Program-made: the position numbers and the translations under genes
Shown: piece by piece, positions 8,401-34,172 of the stretch
Layout of the letters: each line of letters begins with the position of its first letter
Numbering within the stretch: the stretch's first letter is position 1
Origin: an uncultured virus (IMG/VR IMGVR_UViG_2124908030_000016)
Lineage: Duplodnaviria; Heunggongvirae; Uroviricota; Caudoviricetes
Length of the DNA stretch: 35,618 nucleotides
Direction: 5' to 3' (one strand)
Virus record (IMG/VR): IMGVR_UViG_2124908030_000016
The notes under the pieces: model-generated
What the model was told of the DNA's origin: nothing
Seen by the model: only the letters and a program-made list of their open reading frames with translations
The model's database searches: none

Positions 8401-8477
8401 CCGTTCGTGCGCGACACAGCAGTAGTCCTCTCGGCTCCCTCCGGTCGCCGGTAGAACTATCTACGTGTCGCGCATAC
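8401..8477 (+). repeat. 77-78 bp hairpin element, copy 1 (subtype alpha)
   Basis: CCGTT..TGCGCGACAC-A-GCAG-TAGT..ACTA-T-CTAC-GTGTCGCGCA-TAC. Confidence 0.95.
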
Positions 8478-8498
8478 AGAAGTAGTGAAGTAAAACCA

Positions 8499-9647
8499 AT
8501 GATGGAAACCGTACCCGTTCAGACAGAAAAGCAGCTTGCGAATGATGAACAGCTCGTCGAATACGAGGAAGCAACCGCACAGTCGCGGGCGAGTCAAGAG
8601 GAGGTCGCAGAGGACTGGCTGCGACTGGTCTACGCAGACAGTAATCAGTCAAGCAGGCGTGCCGGTGTCATCTACACATCGGGATACGAGGCAGTACAAC
8701 ACGAGAATCCACGAACCGGTCGTGTCGAGTGGAACCGGCAGGTCGAAGCCGTCCGAACGGAGACGGGCCTCCTTCTGACGAACAATAACTTCGATTCCAC
8801 TGGAGGGCGGTTTGGCTCGAGTCACCGCAACCAGGTTCGTCGTGTGCTCTATCGCAGAAGCCGATCGTGGGAGCCCGACATCCCAGAGTACACGCAGGTG
8901 AGTATGGACCTCCGACTGGTCGAGGAGTTCATCAGTCAATTCCAGATGGACGTCGAACTCGAGGAGATAGCCCACATCAAGAACGAACGAGCGGACTATC
9001 TAATCACGTTCACCGACCACCAGCAACTGTTCATCGGAGACGATGATACAGCCCGGCGTGATCGCGATGGCCGATTCGGATTCATCGTCGACGGCGGTCG
9101 TGCGCCCAGCATCGAGGACGCCCTCAATATGCTGGTCCCCGACCCAGTCCAGCGCGCTCAGGCCAACGGCACGGACGTCGAGCGTCAGGGTGAGTGGTTC
9201 CTCATCCCAGCAGACGACGGCCCCGAGAGTCGCATTCAGAAGCCCGGAATGGGGTCCAAGCCCTACGGAGCAAGCCCGCTGGACAGCCACGTTCCACGAG
9301 ACTGGGCAACGATCAACAACGAACAGGTCATCATCGACGAGATCGCACACCAGGACGACCTCGAGCTCGCCGGTGACACCACACCCGAGGAGTTCGCAGA
9401 CGAGATCGACACACTGCAAGAACTGCTGGAGTTCTTCAAAACGGGGCAGTATCACTACCGCTCGGAGTTCGGCATCGAGGAACTCCGTGATCGACTCCAG
9501 GACGAGCTGTTCATCCGAGGCTCGGTCCGACACCGCGACAACGAGCACTACCAGCTCACCCTGGACGACTGGCATCGCGCGTTCACTCACGGCGTCGAGG
9601 TCATCACCGTCGACGACACTTCGTTGATGCGAGTGCGCTTCGACTGA
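8499..9647 (+). CDS. hypothetical protein with phage-type RQG(E/D)W..H..H..EH motif
   Basis: VERQGEWFLIP..SHVP..RGSVRHRDNEHYQLTL; 382 aa. Confidence 0.75.
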   Translation: MMETVPVQTEKQLANDEQLVEYEEATAQSRASQEEVAEDWLRLVYADSNQSSRRAGVIYTSGYEAVQHENPRTGRVEWNRQVEAVRTETGLLLTNNNFDSTGGRFGSSHRNQVRRVLYRRSRSWEPDIPEYTQVSMDLRLVEEFISQFQMDVELEEIAHIKNERADYLITFTDHQQLFIGDDDTARRDRDGRFGFIVDGGRAPSIEDALNMLVPDPVQRAQANGTDVERQGEWFLIPADDGPESRIQKPGMGSKPYGASPLDSHVPRDWATINNEQVIIDEIAHQDDLELAGDTTPEEFADEIDTLQELLEFFKTGQYHYRSEFGIEELRDRLQDELFIRGSVRHRDNEHYQLTLDDWHRAFTHGVEVITVDDTSLMRVRFD

Positions 9648-9652
9648 ACACA

Positions 9653-9874
9653 ATGACAGACTGGTACGTCGAGGGACCAGGACACACTACTTGGGGCCCG
9701 TACACCTACGATGACGCCGAGGTCATTGCCCGTGCCTACGCACACGAGGCAGACGGTGAGCGGTCAGTCGGACTGTTCGCACACCAGACAAGCGTGTACT
9801 CGAAGATCTACGACGAGGAACTGCCACCAATGCCAGACACAACTGACGTGTCACTGCCCTGGGCTAACAGATGA
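9653..9874 (+). CDS. hypothetical protein
   Basis: 73-aa ORF coupled to the next gene. Confidence 0.65.
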   Translation: MTDWYVEGPGHTTWGPYTYDDAEVIARAYAHEADGERSVGLFAHQTSVYSKIYDEELPPMPDTTDVSLPWANR

Positions 9875-10392
9875 GAGTCTGTGAGAGCTGCCAGGAGCGC
9901 TACGACGACGAGGACCTGATATACGACCCAAACGTCATCACCTGTCGATGGTGTCGCGTGCCGTGGGACATCACTGACTACCCCGAAATACTGGGAGAAA
10001 ACGAGGTGACTGTTCAAGACCGCGGTGGGTACAGGAGGATCAGGAACAAGATTCGGATTGCTGGCATCGACGAGACAGCACACGCAATCTACGTCGACGA
10101 GATCGAGAACCGGCTCACGAAGATCGCTCCGAAGCACGGAGCCCGGTCACAGTACAGTCGAGATCCAACAGGAAAGCGATCGGTGTCGTATCAATCGCCA
10201 CACCCAGAGCCGAGGAGATACAGGACGTGGCCAACACTCCCAAACGGCGACCACCTCGTCGTCGTCGGCGCACAGAAGGGAGCGCAAACGAGCACGCTGC
10301 TGGAAACGTGGATGGGCGAGTGGCACGAACTGAACGCGTTCTACGAGCGACAGTGCGACGTCCCCGACGAGACAGACGTCGTCGAACTGTAG
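9871..10392 (+). CDS. hypothetical protein with N-terminal Cys4 ribbon
   Basis: CESC..CRWC; ATGA overlap. Confidence 0.7.
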   Translation: MRVCESCQERYDDEDLIYDPNVITCRWCRVPWDITDYPEILGENEVTVQDRGGYRRIRNKIRIAGIDETAHAIYVDEIENRLTKIAPKHGARSQYSRDPTGKRSVSYQSPHPEPRRYRTWPTLPNGDHLVVVGAQKGAQTSTLLETWMGEWHELNAFYERQCDVPDETDVVEL

Positions 10393-10468
10393 CCCCGTAG
10401 GGACGACGATTCGATGTCAGACAGATCAATTCCGCAGTCCTGACTAACTGATATGGCTAGCAAACAGC

Positions 10469-11248: not shown

Positions 11249-11326
11249 CCGTTTCTGCGCGACATCGCACTAACCCGCGTCGACTCCCGATAGTCGTCGA
11301 CGGAGTTATGTGCGTGTCTCGCATAC
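11249..11326 (+). repeat. hairpin element, copy 2 (subtype beta)
   Basis: Starts directly after TGA 11248; TGCGCGACAT..TAAC..GTTA..GTGTCTCGCATAC. Confidence 0.95.
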
Positions 11327-12836: not shown

Positions 12837-12913
12837 CCGCTGGTGCACGACACGGCACTAATCCTTCCGGCTCCTGATAGTCACCGGAAGAAATATGTGC
12901 GTGTCGCGCATAC
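12837..12913 (+). repeat. hairpin element, copy 3 (subtype gamma)
   Basis: Directly after TAA; TGCACGACAC..CTTCCGG..CCGGAAG..GTGTCGCGCATAC. Confidence 0.95.
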
Positions 12914-14297: not shown

Positions 14298-14767
14298 ATG
14301 ACCCCAACGTCACCAGTTGTCCACACTGCAACGAGGATGTCGACACACTGGACGATCCAAGCATCAAGTCGTTGAGTCGACTCAACGACAACGAGATGGA
14401 AGTCGCAATCAGTGGCAACTGCCCGTCGTGTGGAAGAGCAGTTATCACAGGGGGGACGACGAGTATGGTCAGTATCCCATCGTGGGACTTCGAGCTCAAG
14501 AAAACCCATCACAACGATTACGACCAACAGCACTGGCTCGACGCCGATCCGTGCCCCCACTGCGGATCACTGTTGTTCAACGTCGCACTAAGCGCAGAAG
14601 CACAGTTCGTCGGCGCAGCTGGTCAGTGGAAAAACGAGTTCGAAGAAAACGGTGGGACCATCGACCGTTCACTCAACCAGGCAGACGACGGCCCGTGGAT
14701 CCAGTCTGTCACGTTCGTGCGCTGTTCGAACTGTGAGACGGTTCTGTACGACGAGGACGACGAATGA
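14294..14767 (+). CDS. double zinc-ribbon protein
   Basis: CPHC, CPSCG, CPHCG, CSNC. Confidence 0.75.
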   Translation: MNDPNVTSCPHCNEDVDTLDDPSIKSLSRLNDNEMEVAISGNCPSCGRAVITGGTTSMVSIPSWDFELKKTHHNDYDQQHWLDADPCPHCGSLLFNVALSAEAQFVGAAGQWKNEFEENGGTIDRSLNQADDGPWIQSVTFVRCSNCETVLYDEDDE

Positions 14768-15054
14768 CCGATGAAACGATCACCATCGAGCGCATCGAAG
14801 CGGACAACGACACGCCCGAGTCCTGTCCCGAGTGTGAATGCCCGACTATGTCGATGATCGCAGTCGACGACTCGATCGGTCGCTACAGCGATGGGCACTG
14901 GAGCGAGTCAAACTGTCTGGTCCTCGACAACATCGGGCTCAGGTGTGCGGACTGCTTCGAGCCTATCTGGTCCTCGAAGAAAGCACAGGCACTCGAGTTG
15001 ATCGACGACGCACCGGACGACGCGACCATCACCATCACGGTAGACACCCAATGA
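14764..15054 (+). CDS. zinc-ribbon protein
   Basis: CPEC..CADC; ATGA overlap. Confidence 0.7.
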   Translation: MTDETITIERIEADNDTPESCPECECPTMSMIAVDDSIGRYSDGHWSESNCLVLDNIGLRCADCFEPIWSSKKAQALELIDDAPDDATITITVDTQ

Positions 15055-15230
15055 CAGTAGACACCCACCCTGACGCACCAGAACCGGCAGTCCGAGACGC
15101 AGAGTGCCTTCACGAATACGCCGTCAACGAACTCGGTCACAGGACCTACGACGTGCTGTTCACCGCCAACAGCGACGGCTCCATCGACGGAACAATCGAA
15201 GAAGACGTTGCGATGAACGACAACCAATGA
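15051..15230 (+). CDS. hypothetical protein
   Basis: MTVDTHPD..; ATGA overlaps on both sides. Confidence 0.6.
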   Translation: MTVDTHPDAPEPAVRDAECLHEYAVNELGHRTYDVLFTANSDGSIDGTIEEDVAMNDNQ

Positions 15231-15385
15231 CAAAGAAAGAAGCAACAGTCACGATGCGGTTCGAGTACGACAGCCGGAACTTCGACGAGTTCGACGACGA
15301 GATGATCAAGCGGATGGTCCAAGACACAATGCTGGACCACCCGGAGATCGTCTACGAGTCGATCGAAGTCGATGAGGTCGATTGA
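15227..15385 (+). CDS. hypothetical acidic protein
   Basis: MTKKEATV..; ATGA overlap. Confidence 0.6.
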   Translation: MTKKEATVTMRFEYDSRNFDEFDDEMIKRMVQDTMLDHPEIVYESIEVDEVD

Positions 15386-16037
15386 TTTGGGGCAGTACTT
15401 CAGAGCAGTATGCCCCCAGCGCAAGGAGTACATCTCGCTTCCTAGCGGGATGAAGGTCATCGAGCGCCTGACGAGCGCAGAGTCGATGGTTCGGCTCGCG
15501 TTCCTGCTGTACGACCACGACGCACCAGATGACTACTACGACCACTACGGACGCTGGGCCGGCTCCGATGCCCGACTGGTCGGTGACTACGACGACTCGG
15601 GACTGTACAACGAGCCGGATCCAACAGTCACGGTCGCTCCCCTCAGCAACCCGAAGCTGATCAAAGAAGACACCGAGAGCACAACGGCGCCGAACCGACA
15701 CAGCGTCACGGAGAACTGGACGGTCACTCTGGACTACGCACGATCGCCACTGATCAAGGGCAGTTGGAGCTGGCGTGGCCCAGGGAGCTTCTCCTGTTCG
15801 CATCCTGGCCCCAAGCACCCAGATAGTACGTTCACCGTGGGCTCGTACGTCCAGCTCAGAGACAACGACGACGACAGGCTCGAGGAAGACACCGTCGGCG
15901 TCGTGATGTCCATCGAGAACGACTGGATGGACATCACAGACCGCGTCGAGAACGAGATGGAGGCCCTCGTCGACAGCGAGCTCTACGAGCAAGACGACGC
16001 GAAGCTGATGCCCCGACGAATCATCGGCGAGGCCTGA
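15372..16037 (+). CDS. hypothetical protein
   Basis: 221 aa; acidic. Confidence 0.65.
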   Translation: MRSIDLGQYFRAVCPQRKEYISLPSGMKVIERLTSAESMVRLAFLLYDHDAPDDYYDHYGRWAGSDARLVGDYDDSGLYNEPDPTVTVAPLSNPKLIKEDTESTTAPNRHSVTENWTVTLDYARSPLIKGSWSWRGPGSFSCSHPGPKHPDSTFTVGSYVQLRDNDDDRLEEDTVGVVMSIENDWMDITDRVENEMEALVDSELYEQDDAKLMPRRIIGEA

Positions 16038-16039
16038 CG

Positions 16040-16246
16040 ATGATCATCGACGTCGCTCCACCAGTTGGGTCGGACGAGAAAGACAGGATCATCTTCGCAG
16101 TGAAGAAGACGTACTTCGTCGACGACGACCTCCACGCCGAACACGTCGCCGGGATGAAGACGATTGTGTCGAGCCACAACGGCGAGAAGCCGACCATCGC
16201 GCTCAGCTACGACAACGAAGAGGTCTTCGAAGATGAGAACCAGTAA
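16040..16246 (+). CDS. hypothetical protein
   Basis: 68 aa; adjacent to the upstream stop. Confidence 0.6.
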   Translation: MIIDVAPPVGSDEKDRIIFAVKKTYFVDDDLHAEHVAGMKTIVSSHNGEKPTIALSYDNEEVFEDENQ

Positions 16247-16463
16247 CCCACGCACCAACATCCAGGTCAGCATCCAACCACAACCTGGCTTCGGTGGAAA
16301 GTACCACACATTCCAATACGTCGAGCGAGTCCATACCGTCGACGCCGAGCTCGTCGTCAAGTACGCACCACCAGAGGGGACCTACGAGGTCCTGGAAGAG
16401 CGCTTCGACGCGAAGACGATGGAACTCTGCGAAGTAACGACCGTCGAACAACCCCCGCGGTAA
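16233..16463 (+). CDS. hypothetical protein
   Basis: MRTSNPRT..; stop abuts repeat copy 4. Confidence 0.6.
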   Translation: MRTSNPRTNIQVSIQPQPGFGGKYHTFQYVERVHTVDAELVVKYAPPEGTYEVLEERFDAKTMELCEVTTVEQPPR

Positions 16464-16541
16464 CCGTTTCTGCGCGACACGGCACTAATTCTCCCGACGT
16501 CCCTTCGGTCGTCGGAAGAAATATGTGCGTGTCCCGCATAC
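16464..16541 (+). repeat. hairpin element, copy 4 (subtype gamma)
   Basis: Directly after TAA; TGCGCGACAC..CCGACG..CGTCGG..GTGTCCCGCATAC. Confidence 0.95.
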
Positions 16542-16564
16542 TTCAGACACGGAGTTAGCAACTG

Positions 16565-18289
16565 ATGTCTACAGATGCACGTCGCACTCGAATCGAAGGT
16601 ACGGATGATCTGTTGCGGTCTGTCATCGTTGACCAGGCCAGCGACATCGAACACTCGTGGCGCGAACTGGTCCAGAACGGACTGGACTCGCCATCGGCAA
16701 CCCGCGTCGAACTCGACTGGGACCACGACAAGACGGTCTACCACGACAACGGTGGTGGGGTCGACCTCTCGGCCCAGCGCGGACAGGACCTACTGACCAA
16801 CCTCGGCGAGTCTTCGAAGAATGCCGAGGACGACGAGAGCATCGGCGAGTTCGGCATCGGCAAGGGCCAGTACCTGGCCAAGGGTCGAACAGCACTCATC
16901 GACGGTGACGACGCGCTCCTGTTCGACGTCCAGGGCGAACTGGGGCTGGACGTCGTCTGCGTCGACACTGACGACCTGGTCGAGCAGGCCAACGAGCTGA
17001 CCGGTAACGGCAAACTCAGTCAGTACGTCCAGGACGCCCTCGAGACGTACGGCCGGAACGGGATGACCATCGTCCTCGACCACTACGGCGACGAGGTTCC
17101 CGACTTCGACTACAAGTGGAACAGTCACCAAAGCGCCATCGAGAAGCGGTTCAAGTTCGCCGAGATCGCGACTGCGACGAAGGTGTACGTCAACGACGAG
17201 CGGATCAGCGACTTCTCACCGGGTGGGGAGGTCGAACACAAGTACACCCACGCCGAGGAGTTCAGCGACCCCGCGACTGACCTCGAGCGCGCCCACATCG
17301 CCGTCGGCCACAATACGGGTAGCGACCTGGGTGTCTACTCCAACGGCGTCTACGTCTGCGACGTCGAAAGCCGAGGACTATCCGGTGTCATCGTCACCGA
17401 GGGCAACCTCCGGCTCAACTTTGCGCGCAACGAGATCAAGTCCGGCTGCCATCGCTTCACGGCCATCGAAAACCGTCTCGAGGAGATCCGCCTCGACCTC
17501 TACTCCTCGATGCCGGACAACCGGCTCACGCTCTCGTCGCGCGACTTCCTGGCAGAGCAGCTACTCGATCACGGCAACGAGGAGTTCGTCGACACGGAGC
17601 TGTTCAAGACCATCAACGGTGACCACGTCTCGCTCGCAGACGTCAAGAGCCGGAGCAGTGTCGCCAGTTCCCGTCCCGGCAAGGGTGCCGGTGACAAACT
17701 GTCCGAATCCCTCGGGATGATCGTCCTCAGCGAACTCGATGACGCCACCGGGCGCCTGCTCGAGGTCATCGAGGTCGACGAAGTCAAGAGCAACACCGAG
17801 GACGACCAGAACAGCGGGACTGAGGTCGACATCGACATCGACGTCGAGGACGCAACGGAGAAGGCCGAGTCGATGGGACTCCACACCAGCTACGAGCGTT
17901 TCGGGATGGGCGACCTGAAGCCCGTCCAGCGCACCAAGCTGGCGATCGCCCGTGAGATGGCCGACCGCATCGAGGACTACGACCGCGAGATCTACTACGG
18001 CGAGTCCGACGTCGCCAAGTCCTGGACCGACGCCAGCACCTACGTCACCATCACAGACTCCTCGACGTCCAGCAACGCCTGGCAGGTGTACGCCCCCGAG
18101 CTGTGGCGACAGCTGGTTCACGAGATGGCTCACGTCACCTCCTCGAAAAAGGAGTCCGACCACGGATACGAGTTCAACCGACGCTACCGGAATCTGAACG
18201 ACGACCAGCACGAAGTTCTCTCAGAGGTCATCCAGGACATCCGCGACCGTGGGCTGGACGCCGTCAAGCAGAACGCTCCCAAGTACTGA
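16565..18289 (+). CDS. GHKL (Hsp90/MORC-like) ATPase with C-terminal HExxH metallopeptidase-like motif
   Basis: RELVQNGLDS (N box), DNGGG (G1), GEFGIG (G2), GMT; C-terminal LVHEMAH..HGYEF. Confidence 0.85.
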   Translation: MSTDARRTRIEGTDDLLRSVIVDQASDIEHSWRELVQNGLDSPSATRVELDWDHDKTVYHDNGGGVDLSAQRGQDLLTNLGESSKNAEDDESIGEFGIGKGQYLAKGRTALIDGDDALLFDVQGELGLDVVCVDTDDLVEQANELTGNGKLSQYVQDALETYGRNGMTIVLDHYGDEVPDFDYKWNSHQSAIEKRFKFAEIATATKVYVNDERISDFSPGGEVEHKYTHAEEFSDPATDLERAHIAVGHNTGSDLGVYSNGVYVCDVESRGLSGVIVTEGNLRLNFARNEIKSGCHRFTAIENRLEEIRLDLYSSMPDNRLTLSSRDFLAEQLLDHGNEEFVDTELFKTINGDHVSLADVKSRSSVASSRPGKGAGDKLSESLGMIVLSELDDATGRLLEVIEVDEVKSNTEDDQNSGTEVDIDIDVEDATEKAESMGLHTSYERFGMGDLKPVQRTKLAIAREMADRIEDYDREIYYGESDVAKSWTDASTYVTITDSSTSSNAWQVYAPELWRQLVHEMAHVTSSKKESDHGYEFNRRYRNLNDDQHEVLSEVIQDIRDRGLDAVKQNAPKY

Positions 18290-20397: not shown

Positions 20398-20399
20398 CA

Positions 20400-24910: not shown

Positions 24911-25278
24911 GAACGTTCGACATCACCCGCAGCACGTTCCGAGAGTTCGTGAATGCGGTCGACGGTGAGTACAAGGAGTACGAACAGAAGCAGATCCTCG
25001 AGTTCAAAGACAACGAGACAACTCTCGTCCACGACCCCGATGAGGAAACCATCGAGATCACCCGCTACGAGGACTACGGACTCAGTATCAAAGCGACCCT
25101 TCCGGTCGGCCAGTGCGAGATCTCGCAGATGCCCGACGACCACAACCTGTTGACGATGCTCAGCACCACCGACGCCACAGCGTCGGCGTTCACACGTACA
25201 GCCCGGAAGCCAGCTACCGCGCAAACGGGAGATCAAGATGGGGGACGACGAGTTCCAGGATATGGTGATCACCGATGA
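24907..25278 (+). CDS. hypothetical protein
   Basis: ATGA overlap. Confidence 0.65.
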   Translation: MRTFDITRSTFREFVNAVDGEYKEYEQKQILEFKDNETTLVHDPDEETIEITRYEDYGLSIKATLPVGQCEISQMPDDHNLLTMLSTTDATASAFTRTARKPATAQTGDQDGGRRVPGYGDHR

Positions 25279-25740
25279 GTAGCTACGACACCCGGCTCCG
25301 ATCCGAGCTACACAAGCTGTACGACCACTCAGCGGGCTGGACGACTCTCCTTTCGTGCTTCCGTGACGATCGCGACGCCGACAGACGTCGTACTCCCAAT
25401 GTGCTCATCTACATCACGAGGAGTCACGACTGGCTACGGGGTCGACGTCGGTGACGTGATCATCGCACCAGGCAACGGTGACGTCGACCCTGTCCCAGAC
25501 AAGGACGTCGACCACGTCCTCGGCTACCTGAACGATGCGTTCTACGACGAGCATCCAGAACTAACGAAGATATCACCGGACGACGACCGCTGGCCGACCG
25601 AAGACGACCCGGTGAGCGTACTGGCCGAGGTACAGCTGGAATTCGTCCGTCACGAGCGCTGGTGTCTGACGGCTTATAGCTTCGACCTCGAAGAGGAGCG
25701 CATCAACCACTGGAGCGACCGGAGCACAGTCACCCAATGA
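25275..25740 (+). CDS. hypothetical protein, apparently frameshifted near 25400-25450
   Basis: Coupled ATG 25275 frame stops at 25454; the acidic C-terminal part is in another frame ending 25740. Confidence 0.45.
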
Positions 25741-26054
25741 GCACGACCGCATCAATCAATCTCCAGTACAGCGACGGCACGACATCCGGGTCAGTGACTA
25801 TCGTGTGCAGTCACGACGGCTACCCGGAAAGCATTGTTGACGGACTACTCGCTGACCTCGCCGAGACCTATCGAAAAGAGGGGTTGGCAGCACTCTTGGA
25901 CAACATCATCAGTGACCTCGACACCGCTGATGGACCGCACTTCGCGACTCTCGAGTACAACTACGACGCCACGCTCACTCCCGACGAACAGAGCGTGAGC
26001 TGGGAAGCCCGAGACTACGAATCCGAATCCGGAACGAAAACGAGAGAACTCTAA
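25737..26054 (+). CDS. phage-type hypothetical protein with HDGYP motif
   Basis: IVCSHDGYPE. Confidence 0.65.
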   Translation: MSTTASINLQYSDGTTSGSVTIVCSHDGYPESIVDGLLADLAETYRKEGLAALLDNIISDLDTADGPHFATLEYNYDATLTPDEQSVSWEARDYESESGTKTREL

Positions 26055-26608
26055 TGACACTCGACAGCGACCATCACAAGCAGAATCATCAGACAATGAT
26101 CACGACCACCACCCGCCAGAGCAACGAGGGGAACACAGTCACGATGCTCGGTGGATGGGGCATCAACTGTAACGAGATCCAGGCGGGCGACATCGTCAAT
26201 GATGAGTTCGCACTGAGCAAGTACGGTGAACCGATCCAGTACTCCCAACTCCCAGTTCGGTCGGTCGACGAGCGCGACCCCGGACACGACATCCCGTGTG
26301 CGTTCTGTAACGACGACACGCACGTCCAGGAGCGCCTCGGAAGCTCACTCAAGCACAGCGAGGAAGACATCCTCGACATCACCTACGAGCGTGACGGGTC
26401 GACCCACACTGGGGTCATCTTAAACCTCGACACGAACCACCCAGATGGATGGCAGGTCGTGCTGGTCGGTGGAACAGCCGTGCCACTCAACGACGTCGTT
26501 GAGGTCGGTGATGAGTACGACGGCATCGTCAAGGCCGACTACGCGCTAGTCGGAACCGAGACGCTGGAACTCCACGGCTTCGGCTGTCACGCCTGTGTCC
26601 AGCGATGA
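26054..26608 (+). CDS. hypothetical protein (CxxC pair); start uncertain
   Basis: CAFC..CHAC. Confidence 0.65.
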   Translation: MTLDSDHHKQNHQTMITTTTRQSNEGNTVTMLGGWGINCNEIQAGDIVNDEFALSKYGEPIQYSQLPVRSVDERDPGHDIPCAFCNDDTHVQERLGSSLKHSEEDILDITYERDGSTHTGVILNLDTNHPDGWQVVLVGGTAVPLNDVVEVGDEYDGIVKADYALVGTETLELHGFGCHACVQR

Positions 26609-26874
26609 TCCTCACCGGTGAGTGTCCCGACGGTACGGAGTACCAGCTTGAGGAACGGCCAGACGACGACGTCGACAACTACTCACTCCGGATCGGACCG
26701 ACGTACATCGAGTTCTCGTCAGTCCAGTGGGCAGACCACGTACTCCTCCTGCTCTCCGCCGATGGTGGCGGATACGTGAGCGTCAGTCACGACGTGCCCG
26801 GTCGGGAGTGCGATATCGACGACGAGCTCTGCAACACGCTCCTGGAACTCAACGATGGAGAGACAAACACTTAG
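26605..26874 (+). CDS. hypothetical protein
   Basis: ATGA overlap. Confidence 0.65.
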   Translation: MILTGECPDGTEYQLEERPDDDVDNYSLRIGPTYIEFSSVQWADHVLLLLSADGGGYVSVSHDVPGRECDIDDELCNTLLELNDGETNT

Positions 26875-27175
26875 ACTCAGGGGTGAACAGACACTCTGGA
26901 GGAACAAACACTTTCCTGACGACGAAAACGAGTACAACTGGCAGTTCCACTACGAACAGATGCGACTCACTCGTCGTGATCCACCGGTCACCAAGGAGAT
27001 CATCAACCATCTTCTGGCCAACGGTGTGGTCCTGGGCGACCCAAATCACATCGACCGCGTGAAATTCCTGGACATCATCGACGGGGTCCGGTGGGAGATC
27101 ATCGTCGCGGTCGACGATCTCAATCCACCAGCGCTACTCACTGTCTTCAGTTCCGAACACGAGCAACGACAATGA
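26855..27175 (+). CDS. hypothetical protein, weak resemblance to DUF4258/BECR-type fold
   Basis: ..VTKEIINHLLANG..WEIIVAV..ALLTVF pattern only. Confidence 0.4.
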   Translation: MERQTLRLRGEQTLWRNKHFPDDENEYNWQFHYEQMRLTRRDPPVTKEIINHLLANGVVLGDPNHIDRVKFLDIIDGVRWEIIVAVDDLNPPALLTVFSSEHEQRQ

Positions 27176-27354
27176 CACTCGATCTCACAGCAATCAGCGA
27201 ACGGATTGATGACCTCCGAGACGAACGGGCTCGTCTCGAGCAGCGAGATCCTAACACTACGACAGACGACGTCCTCAACGGGGCCAGACGGACAGCAATC
27301 ATCGCAGAGATTCACCATCTCACGGCAATCAAACATACAAACCACAACCAATGA
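27172..27354 (+). CDS. hypothetical protein
   Basis: ATGA overlaps. Confidence 0.55.
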   Translation: MTLDLTAISERIDDLRDERARLEQRDPNTTTDDVLNGARRTAIIAEIHHLTAIKHTNHNQ

Positions 27355-27611
27355 ACCCAACCACGAGAGTCAAGCACGACGACATCACAATCGACGTTCA
27401 CGACGAGGAAGACGCAGTAACTGTCACCACCGGGTCGTACCGATACGGTCACCCAGGACTGGCACTCACGATCCACTTCGACTACCTCAACGAGCTCGTC
27501 GACGAGGACATCCAGGACGACACCGAGAAACTCCTGGACATCGCCATCGACCGCGCTGTCGGCCGTATCGACACGCTGAACGAAGAGTCCGTACTCAACT
27601 ACGATGACTAA
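27351..27611 (+). CDS. hypothetical protein
   Basis: Acidic; coupled. Confidence 0.7.
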   Translation: MNPTTRVKHDDITIDVHDEEDAVTVTTGSYRYGHPGLALTIHFDYLNELVDEDIQDDTEKLLDIAIDRAVGRIDTLNEESVLNYDD

Positions 27612-28014
27612 GATCAACACGTCGATCGACATCCAGCACGGACTCGAACGAGCGTTCCGAGAAACCCTCCGAGGACACGGAATCAAGCCGAAGAACATCC
27701 CGAACCTCGAGGTCACCGAGACCGTCCTCAACATCGGGGACTACTTCGACGTTGAAGCCTTCCGGGAGTCCCACGTCGGCGAGGTCGACAACATCGACCA
27801 CGTGGTCCACGAAACCTACGCGCCGTACTGGCTCTACCTCACGGGCGTCCCCGAGATCGAGCTCAGCGAGGTCGACCACAACAGTCCGATGCGAGAACTC
27901 GACATCACCGTCGACATCACGACCGACAACGACGGCACTCTGCTGAACACGCGCTACCAGCGACTACTCGGCTGTCTGCTCGGCGACGCCGTGGCACGGA
28001 GGATGGACAAATGA
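27604..28014 (+). CDS. hypothetical protein
   Basis: 136 aa; coupled. Confidence 0.7.
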   Translation: MTKINTSIDIQHGLERAFRETLRGHGIKPKNIPNLEVTETVLNIGDYFDVEAFRESHVGEVDNIDHVVHETYAPYWLYLTGVPEIELSEVDHNSPMRELDITVDITTDNDGTLLNTRYQRLLGCLLGDAVARRMDK

Positions 28015-28292
28015 GTAGCGAGGGAGAGCTGTTCTGTCGCAATCATATCCCCGAGGTCCTCGACGACGTGGACCGTATCACCGACGTCCCGGTGAAGTAC
28101 TGGACGTCGACGGAGCAACGACTTCCCGGTGAAGTCGAACTGGAAGCGGTCGTCAACAAACGGGAAGAACAGATCCTCGTTCAGCTGGAGTCGACGATCA
28201 AAAGAGACCTGACAGGAGGAGAGTACATCGGAAAGAAAGTAACCGGGTACGAGATCGTCGACGGCGCAGAGTCACAGGAAGTACAGCAATGA
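28011..28292 (+). CDS. hypothetical protein, paralog of 7257-7562
   Basis: VQLESTIKRDLTGGEYIGKKVTGYEI. Confidence 0.7.
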   Translation: MSSEGELFCRNHIPEVLDDVDRITDVPVKYWTSTEQRLPGEVELEAVVNKREEQILVQLESTIKRDLTGGEYIGKKVTGYEIVDGAESQEVQQ

Positions 28293-28353
28293 CTGACAAG
28301 CAGACACTCGAACAGAAGGCGTTCGACGACCTCGACGAGATCGCAGACGACAA

Positions 28354-28644
28354 ATGACTCACCTACACGTCACCTTTGACGGCGACGACCCGGACGTCGA
28401 TTTCCCACTGGAGGTTCGTGGGATTGGCGAGTTCCTGTTCGAACAGGCAGGTGGCAACCTCGTCGAGATGTCCGACAAGGAAAAACGCGACTTCGAGATG
28501 TTCGTCGCCGACACCACAGCTCGAGAGGCCATCAACCAGGCACTGGAGATCGCTGACAGCGCACCGACGTTCGACCACGTGTCTGCCTCGGCGGTGGACA
28601 GAGCGAGTGACACGGTGACCGTCGAGTACACCATCGACCAATGA
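28354..28644 (+). CDS. hypothetical protein
   Basis: 96 aa; acidic. Confidence 0.7.
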   Translation: MTHLHVTFDGDDPDVDFPLEVRGIGEFLFEQAGGNLVEMSDKEKRDFEMFVADTTAREAINQALEIADSAPTFDHVSASAVDRASDTVTVEYTIDQ

Positions 28645-28712
28645 AACAGGACCACCCCGATGGCGAAGTCGTGCCCGACAGCGAGATTGAACGTCGCTCG
28701 ATCAACGACTAA

Positions 28713-28790
28713 CCGTTCCTGCGCGACACCGCAGTAGTCCGTATCGCTTCCCTCCGGTTAGCGATAGAACTATCTGCGTGTCACGCATAC
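28713..28790 (+). repeat. hairpin element, copy 9 (subtype alpha)
   Basis: After TAA; TGCGCGACAC-C-GCAG-TAGT..TATCGCT..AGCGATA..ACTA-T-CTGC-GTGTCACGCATAC. Confidence 0.95.
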
Positions 28791-28797
28791 AGTCAGA

Positions 28798-29223
28798 ATG
28801 CGAATGTCAGACTCAAACTACCAGACGTACGACCCGTGCCCACACTGTGGGTCAGAGGGACCGTTCCGACAGACAATCAGTCAGCAGGAAGATCTCGAGG
28901 TCGAAGACGGCGCAGTCACCGATATCGTTCCAGACGGATCAACGTACACAGTCACCGAACTGTTCTGTGTCGGATGTGACCAGGAGATCCTCGAAAACTC
29001 CGCACCGTCGCTCGACAGCGAGGTCTGGACAGAGTTCCAGATAGGAGCCGAGGGACTCAGTGTCACGCTGTATCGAGGCACCGACAGGCCAACCGTGCTC
29101 GACGAGATGTGGCAGGCCTGGGCAGAGGTCGTTCCCGAAGGCATCGAGCCAGGCCACTGGCAGATCATCAGTGAGGCGCTGAACGGCCGAGAACACGAGC
29201 GGTTCATCCTCGAAGATAGATGA
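28798..29223 (+). CDS. zinc-ribbon protein
   Basis: DPCPHCGS..CVGC. Confidence 0.7.
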   Translation: MRMSDSNYQTYDPCPHCGSEGPFRQTISQQEDLEVEDGAVTDIVPDGSTYTVTELFCVGCDQEILENSAPSLDSEVWTEFQIGAEGLSVTLYRGTDRPTVLDEMWQAWAEVVPEGIEPGHWQIISEALNGREHERFILEDR

Positions 29224-29615
29224 GTGAAATCGGCGACCTGATCGAAGGCGCACAGGACCCAGAAACAGTGTTCACGCTCACTGTCGAGATGGCAATTGCA
29301 GACCTGACAGCGTACATCAAACATCACCCAGACAAGATCGAAGAGCTCGGTGGCGTCAGCGACTGGCTCATCGACGTCGCATTGAGCACCGTCATCGAAC
29401 CAGTCCTCAAGGAGTACGGATCCACCACACACACCCAGATCATCGAAGGACAACTGGAGAACCGTGGGATGGAAGCACTCAACGCCAGAAACGGCCTCCA
29501 ACAGTCACTGCTGCTCGACGCATCGATCGCTGTCAGGAACGAGGCAGAGATCCGGATGAACAACCGTCGAGTCATCGACACCGGCCGAACGGAGCGATAC
29601 GGATGGAACAACTGA
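29220..29615 (+). CDS. hypothetical protein
   Basis: ATGA overlap. Confidence 0.7.
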   Translation: MSEIGDLIEGAQDPETVFTLTVEMAIADLTAYIKHHPDKIEELGGVSDWLIDVALSTVIEPVLKEYGSTTHTQIIEGQLENRGMEALNARNGLQQSLLLDASIAVRNEAEIRMNNRRVIDTGRTERYGWNN

Positions 29616-30001
29616 AACGAGCAATCGTCGACGCACCCACGGACCGAGTTGCATTCGACCTCGCTGTCGAAGCACTCGTCCTCAAGGTCACAGAGATAGT
29701 CGAAGAACAGCGAGCGTACCTCGAAGCCAACCCGGACGACTTCGACCACACGGAGGCACCATACGGGTTCCACCCCGAGGATCCAGATGAAGTACTACAG
29801 TCCGGGGACCACGGTGCAGTGATGGGTGCCATCAGCGATTTCGCCCGTCAATTCGATACTGACCACCTCGTCCGCATCGTCGATGGCCGAATCGTCGAGA
29901 CCGGCTTCGAGGTTGTCGGCAGTGGGCCGAACGACCTCGAAAACGGAGATTCGGATTCGAAGCAGAGATCTGGCTCCGCAACGAGCTGGAGCTCCGACTG
30001 A
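29603..30001 (+). CDS. hypothetical protein
   Basis: Acidic; overlapping. Confidence 0.65.
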   Translation: MEQLKRAIVDAPTDRVAFDLAVEALVLKVTEIVEEQRAYLEANPDDFDHTEAPYGFHPEDPDEVLQSGDHGAVMGAISDFARQFDTDHLVRIVDGRIVETGFEVVGSGPNDLENGDSDSKQRSGSATSWSSD

Positions 30002-30052
30002 TGGACCGCAACGTCATCGAGATCTCGCGGGACCCCTACCGAGTCGACAGAG

Positions 30053-30277
30053 ATGAGTGACACTACAAACGTGACGAAGAAGGTCATCCAGATCGCTGGA
30101 TTCCCGACGAGAGTCGCACACCCCGAACACGGCGAGATACTGATCGTGGACGCGACGCAGACCCACGCGTACGGCAAGTGGTACTACGCCTACGTCGTCC
30201 CCGGCGAGGACGACGGCGGACTGATCCGCGACAACACGACCGAAGTCGCCATCCTGGAGGAGCCTCTCGATGAGTGA
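30053..30277 (+). CDS. hypothetical protein
   Basis: 74 aa. Confidence 0.65.
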   Translation: MSDTTNVTKKVIQIAGFPTRVAHPEHGEILIVDATQTHAYGKWYYAYVVPGEDDGGLIRDNTTEVAILEEPLDE

Positions 30278-30446
30278 CAAACACAACTGCCTCGCGAACG
30301 CAACACCCGTGATAGACAGGCAGATCGACGGCGAGCCGATACTGTCGGCAACGCTCGGCGACCAGGTCGAAGTGTACGTCTCCTGTCGGAAGTGCGGACA
30401 GGACCTGACACTGTCGTACGGATACGTAGACAGTGAAACCCGATGA
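30270..30446 (+). CDS. 58-aa HxC..CxxCG microprotein
   Basis: MSDKHNC..CRKCGQ; overlaps both neighbours. Confidence 0.55.
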   Translation: MSDKHNCLANATPVIDRQIDGEPILSATLGDQVEVYVSCRKCGQDLTLSYGYVDSETR

Positions 30447-30946
30447 GCATCATCGGCTTCCTGCACGCCGAGAACACGGATCGACCCGTCGCACCAAGGC
30501 GGTCCAGAATGGGCGGGTCCTACACAGGAACCGGATACGCCGGCTGGATGGTCGAAGACGCTGTCATCGTCTGCAACTCGTGCGCTGAAGCACGGTACAA
30601 CTTAGACGACGCGCACCCGGTCTTCACGGACAGCGAGACCAGGTACCCAGGGACAACCTGTATGGATCACACCGACTGTGAGGCGTGTCCTGACCAGCAA
30701 GGTGACGCACTACTCCCAGAGACAATGTTGGTCAACGAAGGCGACCTCTTCCACGTGTCCGACCGAGAGATGTGGAGCCTGGACGTAGACAGCAAGGCCC
30801 CTGAGTCGGCCGTCAGTGAGGTCCTACGGCAACGGGACCGAATACGGTATGAAGCGCCCGACTGGTTAGCTGACACGCGTGCAGGGCACGTCTCGGACCA
30901 GCCAAACGTCCCAGAGATGGGATCGAGGTACACACAAAATGAGTGA
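30443..30946 (+). CDS. hypothetical Cys-rich protein
   Basis: CNSC, CMDH, CEAC. Confidence 0.65.
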   Translation: MSIIGFLHAENTDRPVAPRRSRMGGSYTGTGYAGWMVEDAVIVCNSCAEARYNLDDAHPVFTDSETRYPGTTCMDHTDCEACPDQQGDALLPETMLVNEGDLFHVSDREMWSLDVDSKAPESAVSEVLRQRDRIRYEAPDWLADTRAGHVSDQPNVPEMGSRYTQNE

Positions 30947-31003
30947 CAACATCAACATCCAGATACGAGAGGAACTGGCGCGCGAGCTCGAGGTGCGTGT
31001 CAA

Positions 31004-31399
31004 ATGACCGACGACACGTTCGACGCCGACGAAGAGAGCGTGACAGACGCCTGGGAAGGCGCGTACATCTACACGAGCTGGGGCTACAACCGTACTACCG
31101 TCAACTTCGCACAGATCGTCGACGTCTCCGGCTCGGGCAAGACAGTCGTCGCACGGCTGGTCCACGCCGACGTCGTTGAGAACGAGCGAGGGTCACAGCA
31201 GATGCGACCAGATGCAGAGCAGTACGGAGACGCGTTCCGACTTCACGTTCGAGCAGTCCGGAGCGACCCGTCGTTCCGTGGGTCGTACCCGTTCGCGACC
31301 GGCGACGAGGACGACGGCACCCGGCTGGACAGCTTCTTGCCGTTCGATAACAGCCCCGACAAGACCGTCCACCAGACGCCTCCGAACCACGGCCACTAA
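31004..31399 (+). CDS. mobile-element hypothetical protein with SWGY..T.VNF.Q motif
   Basis: YTSWGYNRTTVNFAQIV. Confidence 0.7.
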   Translation: MTDDTFDADEESVTDAWEGAYIYTSWGYNRTTVNFAQIVDVSGSGKTVVARLVHADVVENERGSQQMRPDAEQYGDAFRLHVRAVRSDPSFRGSYPFATGDEDDGTRLDSFLPFDNSPDKTVHQTPPNHGH

Positions 31400-31484
31400 C
31401 GAGGACCACATCGCCCGCCTCAGCCTCAGCCAGTCGATGCTAACCAACAGTGCCGGAAAGAACTGGCCTGTGTTGGTTAGTGAA

Positions 31485-31562
31485 CCGTTCGCGCGCGTCA
31501 GCGCACTATCCCTTCTGACTCCCTACTGGTCGTCAGAAGAAATATGTACGCGACGCGCGTAC
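31485..31562 (+). repeat. hairpin element, copy 10 (divergent gamma)
   Basis: CGCGCGTC..GCAC-TAT..CTTCTGAC..GTCAGAAG..ATA-T-GTAC..GACGCGCG-TAC; outer stem compensated. Confidence 0.9.
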
Positions 31563-31596
31563 GACACACGATGCCGAAACTAAACAGTAAACACAG

Positions 31597-32043
31597 ATGA
31601 CACACAGACCCTTCGAGTTCGAGAACCCACCAGCGTGGCCGAATCCAAAGTGGACACCGAAGCAGGAACAGAACTGGATCGACCACATCGAGCCGGTCTA
31701 CAGTCGCATAGAAAGCGAGCTCGGTCGACGAATCTTCAGAGCTGTCTGGCGCCCGAAGAAGCGTGGTGACGGCTGGATGAAGCGCGAGCACGTCAAGCTC
31801 GGGACTCCAGAGGACTACGTCGAGGAGAACGTCAGCGACCTGTTCACGCCGATGACCGACATCACCTCGGTGATGATGCGCCAGGTCGGCCGGTACGACG
31901 TCAGCCGAGAGACGCTGGACGAGGCCGTCGATGCGATCCGGAAGGCCCGTCTCAAGCACCTGGCCGACAACAACCCCGAGCGAGCACGCCAACTGCTCGC
32001 GAACACCGCGTACGAAGCAAGTCTCTACGGAGTCGGGAGATGA
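31597..32043 (+). CDS. hypothetical protein
   Basis: 148 aa after the repeat. Confidence 0.7.
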   Translation: MTHRPFEFENPPAWPNPKWTPKQEQNWIDHIEPVYSRIESELGRRIFRAVWRPKKRGDGWMKREHVKLGTPEDYVEENVSDLFTPMTDITSVMMRQVGRYDVSRETLDEAVDAIRKARLKHLADNNPERARQLLANTAYEASLYGVGR

Positions 32044-32162
32044 ACTGTAAGCACTGTGGAGGCCGACTCTCGATCGGCGACGTCGCAATGATCATCTCAC
32101 GACGACAAGAGAAGATCTGCACGAACTGCATCGCAGAGACAACACGGAGACGGTCAAAATGA
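32040..32162 (+). CDS. 40-aa Cys4 microprotein
   Basis: MNCKHCGG..ICTNCIAE; ATGA overlaps. Confidence 0.6.
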   Translation: MNCKHCGGRLSIGDVAMIISRRQEKICTNCIAETTRRRSK

Positions 32163-32296
32163 ACAACTGTGATTTCTGTGGTCGTGAAATCGACGACTAC
32201 GAGGCACGAGTCGGCGCAGAGTTCCACGAAGACGACGAACCAATCTGCACGAAGTGCATTGCAGAGGAGATGATGAACGAACTCGGGGCCCGCTAA
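32159..32296 (+). CDS. 45-aa Cys4 microprotein, similar to the previous one
   Basis: MNNCDFCG..ICTKCIAE; TAATG coupling. Confidence 0.6.
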   Translation: MNNCDFCGREIDDYEARVGAEFHEDDEPICTKCIAEEMMNELGAR

Positions 32297-32706
32297 TGGA
32301 CCTCACACAAGAGCGACACGAGCCAGCTGTCGGTGACATCTACGAGACAAGCCGTGACGACGTCTACCAGGTGCTGTACATCGACGATCAGATGGTTCTG
32401 CTCCGCGATTCGGACGAAGGTCGAAACGGTGACAACATCCACCGGATGGAGCGCCGTGTGAACTTCACGAAAGAGGTCGATGCAGGATTCTTCGAGCACC
32501 AACCTGACTCGAGTCTCGATATGATGGACGAGGCAGAGCGTGATTGGACTGACGTCGACCTGATCGGTGCCAAAACAGCAGAGAACCTGTACGATGCCGA
32601 GTGCAAGACGGGCCTCGACATCCAACAGGCCGATGACGACGAACTTCTCGAGGTCAGTGGCGTCGGTATGGCCGGCCTCCAGAACCTGAAAGAGTTCACA
32701 GGATGA
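32296..32706 (+). CDS. C-terminal tandem helix-hairpin-helix protein
   Basis: VDLIGAKTAENL..DDELLEVSGVGMAGLQNL. Confidence 0.75.
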   Translation: MDLTQERHEPAVGDIYETSRDDVYQVLYIDDQMVLLRDSDEGRNGDNIHRMERRVNFTKEVDAGFFEHQPDSSLDMMDEAERDWTDVDLIGAKTAENLYDAECKTGLDIQQADDDELLEVSGVGMAGLQNLKEFTG

Positions 32707-33065
32707 CACATCCAGACATCGGAAATCTGACCGAGACCCAGCGAGAGCGCATCGTCCGCGACGTGATCAATCACAAGAGCGAGTCGCGAGCGATCAGCAA
32801 GGAGACGTACAGAGAGGAAGACATCGAGCGGGACAGAGAGCAGTTCAGCACGATGAGCGACGACGAGTTAGTCACGTTCTGGTCTGGGCAGGTCGGCGAG
32901 TGGATCTGTTCGATCGGTGGCGAGTACCCCTCGTTCATCGAGGCGTGGGAAGACGTCAGAGGCGAGTACGAGCATCCAGCGGAGTGGCAACTGGACGTCC
33001 TGCTCGACCACGGTGACGTCAACTACGGCTACCAGTTCCCCGTGTACGAGATGCCCTACAACTGA
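32703..33065 (+). CDS. hypothetical protein
   Basis: ATGA overlap. Confidence 0.7.
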   Translation: MTHPDIGNLTETQRERIVRDVINHKSESRAISKETYREEDIERDREQFSTMSDDELVTFWSGQVGEWICSIGGEYPSFIEAWEDVRGEYEHPAEWQLDVLLDHGDVNYGYQFPVYEMPYN

Positions 33066-33244
33066 TGCCAACCAAACCAAAGACCCTCGCAGAGAACCTG
33101 AAGAAGAAGAATCCGGACGCGAACATCGACCGAGAGTCGACGTGCAAGGACTGTCGGTCCAGAATCGCTCTCGAAGAACTGTACTGGTACAAGCGTCAGT
33201 CGTGGCGCTGCACTGATTGCCATCCGCACTTCAACGAACAGTGA
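33065..33244 (+). CDS. 59-aa Cys4 microprotein
   Basis: CKDC..CTDC; coupled on both sides. Confidence 0.6.
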   Translation: MPTKPKTLAENLKKKNPDANIDRESTCKDCRSRIALEELYWYKRQSWRCTDCHPHFNEQ

Positions 33245-34092
33245 CGACTCCAAACATCGACGACATCCTCGACAGCATCGCATCGCTCGCAGACACACCA
33301 GATGACGAAGACGGCCCATACGACCCAGTACTCGTGTTTGCAGGAGAGGACCTCCCAGACTACAGAGAGAAGCTCCCAGCAGACAACGACCTGATCACCA
33401 AGCACGGCGAAGTTGGCGACGTCAAGTTCTTCGAATACCACCCCCGGATGTGGCACTTCGACGAGGGCGCGTTCGTCCTCGCCGACGGGGACCTGGACTA
33501 CGACGATTACGACTACATCCCGGAGTTCGAGGTCACCATCGAGCCCGACGACTACGTGGCGTACCGACTGGTCGCGCCGATGCTCCACGGCGACGAAGAC
33601 CTGTCGTTCACCCTAGAGTTTAGTGTCGGGGACGAACTGGAGCTTGATATGCCGTTCCGACACAGCCGGTTCAGCCGGCACGAACTCAAGGACCCGGACC
33701 ACACCGGGGAGTTCGTCCCCGACATCGACGAGGACTACGAGGCGTTCGTCGAGTACGTCGCCGAGCGCAACCGACTGGTCGACGGCGCCTCGCCCTACCA
33801 CCTCACGGGAGTGATAGTCTCGGGCATCGAGGACATCGGGTACAACAGCGAGAGCCAGAAGTTCGCGCTCACCTACGCCTGTGAGCCGTACCTGCCGGGC
33901 TCCGAAGAGCGCCTCTGGCCCAGGGACGTCCTCACGGCATATCCCGACTACCCCATCGAGCTCGAGAACAGTGACGTCGACAGCGTCTACGACCTCGCCC
34001 GAGCGGTACTCGCGAAAGACATCGAGGCGTACTACGAGCGCAACAACCTCTACGACTCCAACGACGACCTGATCCTCGTCGACCCGCAATAA
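33241..34092 (+). CDS. hypothetical acidic protein
   Basis: GTGA overlap; 283 aa. Confidence 0.75.
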   Translation: MTTPNIDDILDSIASLADTPDDEDGPYDPVLVFAGEDLPDYREKLPADNDLITKHGEVGDVKFFEYHPRMWHFDEGAFVLADGDLDYDDYDYIPEFEVTIEPDDYVAYRLVAPMLHGDEDLSFTLEFSVGDELELDMPFRHSRFSRHELKDPDHTGEFVPDIDEDYEAFVEYVAERNRLVDGASPYHLTGVIVSGIEDIGYNSESQKFALTYACEPYLPGSEERLWPRDVLTAYPDYPIELENSDVDSVYDLARAVLAKDIEAYYERNNLYDSNDDLILVDPQ

Positions 34093-34095
34093 CCA

Positions 34096-34172
34096 CCGTT
34101 CCTGCGCGACACAGCAGTAGTCCTTCCGGCGCCCTTCGGTTGCCGTTAGAACTATCTGCGTGTCACGCATAC
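34096..34172 (+). repeat. hairpin element, copy 11 (subtype alpha)
   Basis: 3 nt after TAA; TGCGCGACAC-A-GCAG-TAGT..ACTA-T-CTGC-GTGTCACGCATAC. Confidence 0.95.

Follow-up and report, generated by a model that had tools for sequence, protein, structure and literature searches.

Eleven co-oriented hairpin repeats with a promoter-like half divide the gene modules of an uncultured halophilic-archaeal virus-like contig

The repeat family and its hairpin

We analysed a stretch of 35,618 bases assigned to an uncultured virus (IMG/VR record IMGVR_UViG_2124908030_000016; hereafter the window), which comes from a hypersaline-lake metagenome and is present in four DNA runs of one study and in no RNA run. 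Direct-repeat families and alignment revealed 11 imperfect palindromes of 77–78 nt, spanning 8.4–34.2 kb in a single orientation, each of which can form a hairpin of about 30 bp whose pairing is under selection. Our preferred reading, held tentatively and with a probability of about 0.45, is that the 11 elements are lineage-specific intergenic regulatory cassettes combining a core promoter with a conserved boundary hairpin. The family is known from this single metagenomic contig and, judged by its sequence, is a new sequence family of an already known kind of viral regulatory repeat. To that kind it would add a distinct architecture, a promoter-like core within a long covarying hairpin, with an unusual template-strand bias.

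The copies occupy positions 8401–8477, 11249–11326, 12837–12913, 16464–16541, 19860–19937, 21549–21626, 24233–24310, 24660–24737, 28713–28790, 31485–31562 and 34096–34172, all on the plus strand, and are named here by their first positions. Copies 8401, 12837 and 34096 are 77 nt long, the others 78 nt. An earlier reading made from the letters alone (the sequence-only reading) had listed the same 11 starts, the single orientation and the lengths; alignment and a covariance model built from the 11 copies bore out all three. Its consensus was also essentially right, the invariant blocks of the 11-copy alignment being CC.TT, GC.CG, TA, CC...GT, GA.TAT.T.CG and CGC.TAC. Run over both strands of the window, the covariance model scored the copies at 82–96 bits (90.5 for 8401, 93 for 11249, 88.1 for 12837, 88.8 for 16464, 86.2 for 19860, 86.5 for 21549, 83.8 for 24233, 92.2 for 24660, 96.2 for 28713, 82.2 for 31485 and 87.1 for 34096) and found no twelfth copy, only weak mirror matches at the same 11 sites. 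A degenerate pattern derived from the alignment matched 9/11 copies and not one site in 100 shuffles; it missed copies 12837 and 24660 because these read CCGCT and CCATT, respectively. Pairwise identity among the copies ranged from 59 to 94%, with copy 31485 the most divergent and copies 19860 and 21549 sharing 94%. The most similar pairs are mostly non-neighbouring, for example 8401 and 34096 (86%) and 11249 and 24660 (89%).

All 11 copies lie between open reading frames (ORFs) and are co-oriented with the genes. A stop codon directly abuts six of them (TGA at 11249, 19860 and 24660; TAA at 12837, 16464 and 28713), and in four more the stop lies 1–9 nt upstream. The direct abutment had been recognised in the sequence-only reading, which counted five such copies. 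A plausible start codon follows 7–34 nt past the element in 10/11 copies, as the earlier estimate of about 7–35 nt had it: ATG at 8499, 11346, 12929, 16565, 21658, 24758, 28798, 31597 and 34182, and probably TTG at 19950. The exception is copy 24233, after which the gene start is unclear. The next gene is a 574-residue GHKL-type ATPase after copy 16464 and a small CxxC ORF after copy 34096. Between the copies lie modules of 0.4–4.1 kb with one to about 12 ORFs, and the earlier description of a structured, co-oriented family bounding multi-gene modules stands. That the elements form most of the intergenic DNA was roughly correct for 8.4–34.2 kb, where the gene list comes from naive ORF calling and several other apparent gaps look coding. 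The genes flanking the copies are non-paralogous: three weak paralogue pairs were found among 71 ORFs, none of which joins modules with similar elements, and module duplication was rejected as the origin of the repeats on this ground. In the shortest module, 24311–24659 (427 nt), the N-terminal 48 residues of the long ORF are very basic and not halophile-like, so that its true start is probably an ATG near 24456; a 20-codon ORF begins at 24323 in a different frame of the same module.

The consensus fold of the minus strand, obtained with RNAalifold, is a helix of 27 pairs that is interrupted by a few single-base bulges and topped by a small stem at the apex. TGCGCGACAC/GTGTCGCGCA form the outer stem, and the element begins with CCGTT and ends with ATAC. 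On the minus strand, 93.3% of the 297 cells of the paired columns were paired, and changes on both sides occurred in 14/27 pairs (33 cells). None of 500 column shuffles matched the observed pairing and covariation, and sliding the partner columns lowered the proportion of paired cells to 29–45%. At least five sequence versions of the inner stem occur among the copies, and in copies 19860, 21549 and 31485 compensated changes extend to the conserved outer arms. Such changes would be needless for a sequence-specific dimeric DNA-binding site; the conserved feature is a single-stranded nucleic-acid structure or a cruciform. Fold energies of the individual copies were −25 to −39 kcal/mol on the plus strand and −33 to −49 kcal/mol on the minus strand (for copy 8401, −35.0 and −43.7; for copy 24233, which has the weakest hairpin, −25.3 and −33.2). 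A kink-turn was rejected (tandem G.A pairs are present, the 3-nt bulge is absent), as were a bulge–helix–bulge processing site (absent by eye from the minus-strand fold), an intrinsic terminator (no T-tract after the hairpin on either strand) and a CRISPR-like or tRNA-like element (no tRNA and no Rfam match).

A promoter-like right half and its precedents

Pairing does not account for all invariant bases of the element: an additional T produces TAT across from TA, and the 3'-terminal TAC is unpaired. In the halovirus HF2, the TATA box is placed at −26 and the TFB recognition element (BRE) at −33 to −37 from mapped start sites, according to the available part of that report (PMC8707807). We anchored the alignment in the same way by setting the last T of TAT to −26. 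Under this anchor TAT occupies −28 to −26, and an invariant TA falls at −11/−10 in 11/11 copies, which is the position of the haloarchaeal WW element; the haloarchaeal promoter motifs listed in the accessible text of PMC4983044 are TTWT, CGAAA and the WW element. The BRE window reads CGGAA in 4/11 copies and begins with CG in 9/11. Most copies have TG or YR at or beside the predicted +1, and a weakly conserved TGAAG motif places TG at −1/+1. Start codons could be assigned after 10 copies, and their offsets from the predicted start site are −1, +1, +4, +7, +11, +12, +13, +15, +23 and +26. None of them precedes that site by more than 1 nt, and the mRNAs of two genes would lack a leader; after copy 28713, the ATG at 28798, 7 nt from the element, coincides with the predicted start. 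The right half of copy 16464 (16514–16550, plus strand) illustrates the layout common to all copies, with a CGGAA BRE-like box, AAATAT, TA at −11/−10 and a predicted start about 9 nt past the element. Viewed by eye in the alignment, the mirror-image half has no promoter geometry. A promoter inside the hairpin, as proposed in the sequence-only reading, is plausible on this motif geometry, and the template strand folds better, a preference that is suggestive only (see below).

From this arrangement we infer promoter activity, a transcription start and a role for the hairpin. Each cassette separates two gene groups, following the stop codon of the first and preceding the start codon of the second, and its right half would carry the core archaeal promoter of the downstream module, made up of a BRE-like CGGAA or variant, an (A/G)(A/T/C)TAT box and TA at −11/−10. 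A TG initiator, lying some 9 nt beyond the element, would be the point where transcription begins, giving leaderless or short-leader mRNAs. The hairpin of about 30 bp would wrap the promoter, and most likely it would mark or insulate the transcript boundary. Alternatively, promoter use may be governed by nucleic-acid structure or by a factor recognising that structure.

The organisation and timing of transcription in haloarchaeal viruses are little known, and in the literature that we searched the intergenic repeats of HF2 are the main experimentally tested case. As far as the available part of the report describes them, these repeats, which are shared by other Haloferacalesvirus, fall into a class I of 56–58 bp and a class II of 29 bp that are restricted to different genome regions; all nine HF2 repeats cloned drive a reporter, and their start sites were mapped (PMC8707807). 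The elements of the window resemble them in being repeated, intergenic, oriented with the downstream genes, restricted to a single genome region and positioned before modules in an ORFan-rich arm. The HF2 repeats hold a BRE/TATA promoter with the start inside the repeat or at its 3' end, whereas in the window elements this geometry is predicted from motifs. The core of the HF2 beta-motif, CTTTAAGT, had no match in the window, and there was no blastn match to phage records. Moreover, the text available to us does not describe the HF2 repeats as long palindromes, whereas the whole 78-nt unit of the window family forms a covarying, strand-biased hairpin of about 30 bp. The window also contains a second palindromic repeat family, unrelated to the 78-nt element, with two copies of about 140 nt at 1–139 and 1557–1696 that are 93–100% identical. 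Each comprises an imperfect palindrome of about 84 nt with outer arms CTTAAGGGTACC / GGTACCCTTAAG and a small downstream hairpin, and folds at −57 to −65 kcal/mol on either strand. With its copies in the first 1.7 kb, this family is reminiscent of the region-specific classes of repeats in HF2.

A second precedent is provided by the promoter-early stem-loops (PeSLs) of the T4-type phages RB49 and phi1. About 50 occur in each phage, the promoter overlapping a stem-loop between a stop and a start codon, mostly beside ORFans, as the consulted portion of the source has it (PMC2839356). Common to PeSLs and the window elements are the succession of stop codon, promoter (predicted here) with stem-loop and start codon, the many copies, the preference for ORFan neighbours in plastic regions and the G-T pairs in the stem. 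PeSLs are bacterial and have sigma-70 promoters and short G/C-rich terminator stems, whereas the window elements are BRE/TATA-like and not of the TTGACA/TATAAT type. Recombination and mini-circles have been demonstrated for PeSLs; none were seen among the window elements in contigs of the four DNA runs. Given that HF2 repeats carry promoters (PMC8707807) and that PeSLs join a promoter to a stem-loop (PMC2839356), as these sources describe in the parts at hand, the earlier proposal of an undescribed kind of element was set aside. If the hairpin acts only as a boundary or insulator, the family would be an archaeal parallel to the PeSL cassettes, and its 11 natural variants would be useful for promoter studies.

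Several observations weigh against the cassette interpretation. The promoter and start site are read from motifs, because no RNA run contains the sequence. The TATA-like box is weak, with an exact TTWT match in 2/11 copies (GTTAT) and A/C-TAT in nine. A promoter alone does not explain the equal conservation of the left half and the unpaired CCGTT flank, nor the covariation of the stem, nor the better pairing of the antisense strand, where wobble cells stand at 23 versus 4 (see below). Archaeal intrinsic terminators are oligo-T tracts, and no such tract follows the hairpin on either strand. Finally, no relatives carrying the element were found in the collections searched.

Strand preference and competing explanations

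The minus strand, which is antisense to the genes and thus the template, folded more stably in 11/11 copies, by 3.3–11.2 kcal/mol with RNA parameters and by 0.4–5.6 kcal/mol with DNA parameters. The consensus gave −36.8 kcal/mol with 27 pairs on the minus strand and −12.2 kcal/mol with 20 pairs on the plus strand. Among the non-Watson–Crick cells, 23 are G.U/G.T on the minus strand (A.C on the plus strand) versus 4 of the reverse kind. In two adjacent columns, an invariant T stands opposite A or G, in all four combinations, and a tandem G.A closure of the apex would be possible only on the minus strand. Base composition accounts for part of this bias. Random 78-nt windows of the region, of which up to 300 were sampled, also favoured the minus strand (mean −2.55, sd 5.1 kcal/mol; 70% of windows), and four-fold degenerate sites are C- and A-rich on the plus strand, from which a minus-favouring wobble ratio of about 2:1 was calculated as the expectation without selection. 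Because the composition controls temper the bias and the copies are non-independent, the evidence for a real template-strand fold preference is suggestive.

The strand preference is central to one unlikely explanation, in which the elements would be structure-dependent archaeal promoters and the template-strand hairpin the form recognised by TBP, TFB and RNA polymerase, or by a viral factor. Such a hairpin would be extruded from supercoiled viral double-stranded DNA or would form on a single-stranded intermediate of replication or entry; the BRE/TATA would be provided in duplex form by the stem, the helix would end near −12, the conserved AACGG flap would be single-stranded, and so would the template where the bubble opens. 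The better minus-strand fold of every copy under both parameter sets, the consensus energies, the excess of strand-specific wobble cells, the invariant-T columns and the presumed minus-only G.A closure all favour it. The stem stops 3 nt short of the element's 3' end, at about −12 in the promoter geometry. The archaeal transcription bubble begins at about −12, so the idea is physically attractive. Precedents are known from bacteriophage N4, whose early promoters have conserved and variable stem bases and are recognised as a template-strand hairpin that is extruded by supercoiling and stable while the non-template hairpin melts (available part of PMC4496689), and from Frpo/ssi, the single-strand promoters of the leading regions of conjugative plasmids (available part of PMC11541004). 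In N4 and Frpo the promoter is a template-strand hairpin, more stable than its complement, whose stem bases can vary to a degree provided that they pair, and it serves early genes that lie on one strand; the window elements may resemble them in these respects. The N4 stem has 5–7 bp and a 3-nt loop, is centred near −11 and is used by a virion RNA polymerase, whereas the stem of the window element has about 30 bp, is centred about 45–50 nt upstream of the predicted start and is accompanied by no RNA polymerase gene in the window. Frpo has −35/−10 boxes and acts on transferred single-stranded DNA beside oriT, whereas the window element is BRE/TATA-like, lacks sigma-70 boxes and has no relaxase or transfer gene in the window. 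Also against a structural promoter, the strand bias is partly compositional, as the random windows and the four-fold sites indicate, and there is no evident source of single-stranded DNA: scans with Pfam, PHROGs, NCBIfam and PADLOC, covering up to 55 ORFs of the window, found no integrase, relaxase, HUH/Rep protein (including a rolling-circle Rep), transposase (TnpA, TnpB, RAYT) or phage-type or other RNA polymerase. We know of no archaeal example of a structure-dependent hairpin promoter. If true, this idea would give archaea a first equivalent of the hairpin promoters of N4 or of the single-strand promoters (Frpo) of plasmids; a whole block of early or accessory modules would be switched on together, and structure-dependent initiation would be extended to the archaeal TBP/TFB machinery. 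A conjugative leading-region context, the setting of one analogue named in the sequence-only reading, is improbable: the closest protein neighbours have a viral look, and the window contains no relaxase. A function at the RNA level without any promoter, as a processing or 3'-end-stabilising site in the plus-strand mRNA or as an element of antisense transcripts, is improbable. RNase III sites between T7 genes are an analogue for such processing sites, and the stable hairpins on both strands, the tolerance of G.U as predicted for RNA pairing and the position of the elements between cistrons are consistent with it, as are the long counter-transcripts over about 70% of the HF2 genome given in the available part of PMC8707807. 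An RNA element would have to be reconciled with the lack of an Rfam match even at permissive thresholds and of a bulge–helix–bulge motif for the archaeal splicing endonuclease (by eye), and with a better-pairing strand that is antisense to every gene and has no visible conserved promoter; the invariant unpaired TAT, TAC and TG geometry would be left unexplained.

Two further explanations invoke mobility. A selfish or neutral, transposase-free hairpin repeat that spread into tolerated intergenic sites, of the type of palindrome-associated transposable elements (PATEs), IS200-IS605 ends or repetitive extragenic palindromes (REPs), is a doubtful candidate; the hairpin and its extrahelical bases would be kept for a mobilising enzyme, and the promoter-like features would be coincidental. 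The elements share with this group the lack of a transposase, the imperfect palindrome with strand-specific folding and the intergenic position, and neither target-site duplications nor terminal inverted repeats beyond the palindrome were found (comparison with the available part of PMC3119063). Conserved bulges and the unpaired flanks of the minus-strand hairpin, GTA on the 5' side and AACGG on the 3' side, fit the same picture; the left junctions read YTRA in 7/11 copies, and the non-paralogous flanking genes imply that the element spread independently of genes. PATEs with near-terminal palindromes, down to terminal-only forms of 52 bp, are abundant in haloarchaea, according to the same source (PMC3119063). 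PATE and REP elements, however, are genome-wide, point in either direction, are frequently almost identical to one another and are associated with TnpA, TnpB or RAYT, none of which is encoded in the window, whereas all 11 window copies share one orientation and a narrow distance to start codons. Their divergence (59–94% identity) with many compensated substitutions implies long retention under selection rather than recent spread, and neither the search of 226 haloarchaeal and nanohaloarchaeal genomes nor the pattern scans found the element. Hairpins of IS605 and REP elements are typically much shorter than this stem. No presence/absence polymorphism of the elements was seen in contigs of the four runs, a weak observation, as contigs drop variants. 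Highly unlikely, finally, is a role as cassette recombination sites, either attC-like or with PeSL-type shuffling, in which a recombinase would act on the folded strand, with gain, loss or reordering of modules at the elements. The layout is indeed attC-like, with a folded single-strand site preferring one strand, conserved ends and outer arms, a covarying core, extrahelical bases, co-orientation, a position directly after the stop of cassette ORFs and ORFan cargo. The similarity of non-neighbouring copies would also fit, and PeSL copies recombine into mini-circles, as reported in the portion of PMC2839356 at hand. Against such a role, the core sites R'' and R' of attC read RYYYAAC ... GTTRRRY; by eye, these motifs are absent from both strands at the ends of the element, where the outer stem is the one given above, and no IntI, tyrosine or other recombinase is encoded in the window. 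Whereas integron cassettes usually carry a single ORF, the modules contain 1 to about 12 genes, and no evidence of cassette exchange was found. Contigs of the four DNA runs were compared with 14,501–34,500, a comparison in which rare forms are invisible; they contained no genuine element-to-element joint, as all apparent joints at elements were cross-mapped paralogous copies, and 5/9 loose ends were other repeat copies. The real strain breakpoints were at 24220, 33762, 28307 and 18278, of which 24220 alone is 15 nt or less from an element. Three runs contained the break at 24220, and three the break at 33762; the former replaces the stop codon of the gene at 24023–24223. These contigs indicate co-occurring strain variants with mosaic breakpoints, and the cassette and recombination idea of the sequence-only reading, for which the window yielded neither a recombinase nor the attC end motifs and the contigs no joint, is unsupported.

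Searches for relatives and gene content of the window

No Rfam family matched at its gathering score across the window, and none matched any element at E-values up to 5 over 8300–34300. Neither megablast with 22 kb nor blastn with a single copy returned a match from phage and plasmid records. The exact outer-arm pattern gave a single, unrelated chance match in IMG/VR, and the degenerate pattern, which itself matches 9/11 copies, had no match in IMG/VR, in JGI metagenome contigs or in 185,579 species genomes. With the covariance model, 37 metagenome loci surrounding homologues of the ATPase described below gave no match, and the genomes behind 5 of 27 ATPase-homologue loci gave nothing significant (best E-value 0.35). 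The model was also empty on 151 and 70 genomes of two classes, a result that shows little. The covariance search that the sequence-only reading had suggested was carried out on the window and a total of 226 haloarchaeal and nanohaloarchaeal genomes, where it recovered the 11 copies and no others. Comparable repeated palindromes were absent from the seven largest or closest related loci, a search for related viral contigs with three window proteins yielded no relative, and no described equivalent was found in the literature search.

The ORFs of the window are on the plus strand, co-directional and tightly packed, and they encode mostly ORFans in an acidic proteome (D+E 18.8%). The protein-atlas neighbours of two ORFans belong mostly to viral (Uroviricota) clusters, with scores below 0.9 that make them leads only, and the replicon is taken to be an uncultured virus-like element of halophilic archaea. 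One window protein is recorded on a contig of 123,245 bp. The window includes 867 N in three runs (2097–2116, 3724–3743 and 5045–5871), the longest of which masks most of an ORF of about 400 residues at 5041–6255.

The sole named domains found by the scans of up to 55 ORFs were DUF4326, YAcAr SLOG, helix-hairpin-helix, zinc ribbons, a MazG-like piece and the GHKL-type ATPase. The DUF4326 protein is encoded at 116–1066, the YAcAr (SLOG) protein at 4615–5019 and three helix-hairpin-helix proteins at 2573–3664, 6460–7260 and 32254–32706. In the helix-hairpin-helix protein of 363 residues, residues 107–271 may hold a YAcAr-like fold, a lead from an atlas model. The 574-residue GHKL-type ATPase (16565–18289, plus strand) has a sacsin/HSP90-like N-terminal ATP-binding region, and PF13589 is assigned to some of its homologues. 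Identity to these homologues is as high as 53% in metagenome protein sets and 40% in a metagenome-assembled genome (MAG) of Nanohaloarchaea. On plasmids of Natrinema, Natribaculum and Natronorubrum (Natrialbaceae) they share about 34% identity and occur in many copies per genome, which suggests a gene borne by mobile elements. Measured by the best tblastn segment, identities across the metagenomes, the Nanohaloarchaea MAG and the Natrialbaceae plasmids were 26–49%. Neither the 78-nt element nor anything comparable was found in the surroundings of these homologues.

A tRNA search of the window was negative. A sub-threshold Rfam match to the C/D-box small RNA sR55 at 19233–19296 on the plus strand (29 bits versus a gathering score of 35; E-value 0.0015) lies within a coding region and is probably due to chance. 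A 75-nt direct repeat with 71% identity, at 2557–2631 and 4550–4624, covers, at each of two genes, the upstream sequence together with the first codons, and may be a shared leader or promoter region. The T-rich run TTTCTTTTTT at 4268–4285, which ends a 206-nt gap upstream of the ORF at 4286, was the only clear oligo-T terminator-like tract noticed among the listed intergenic gaps.

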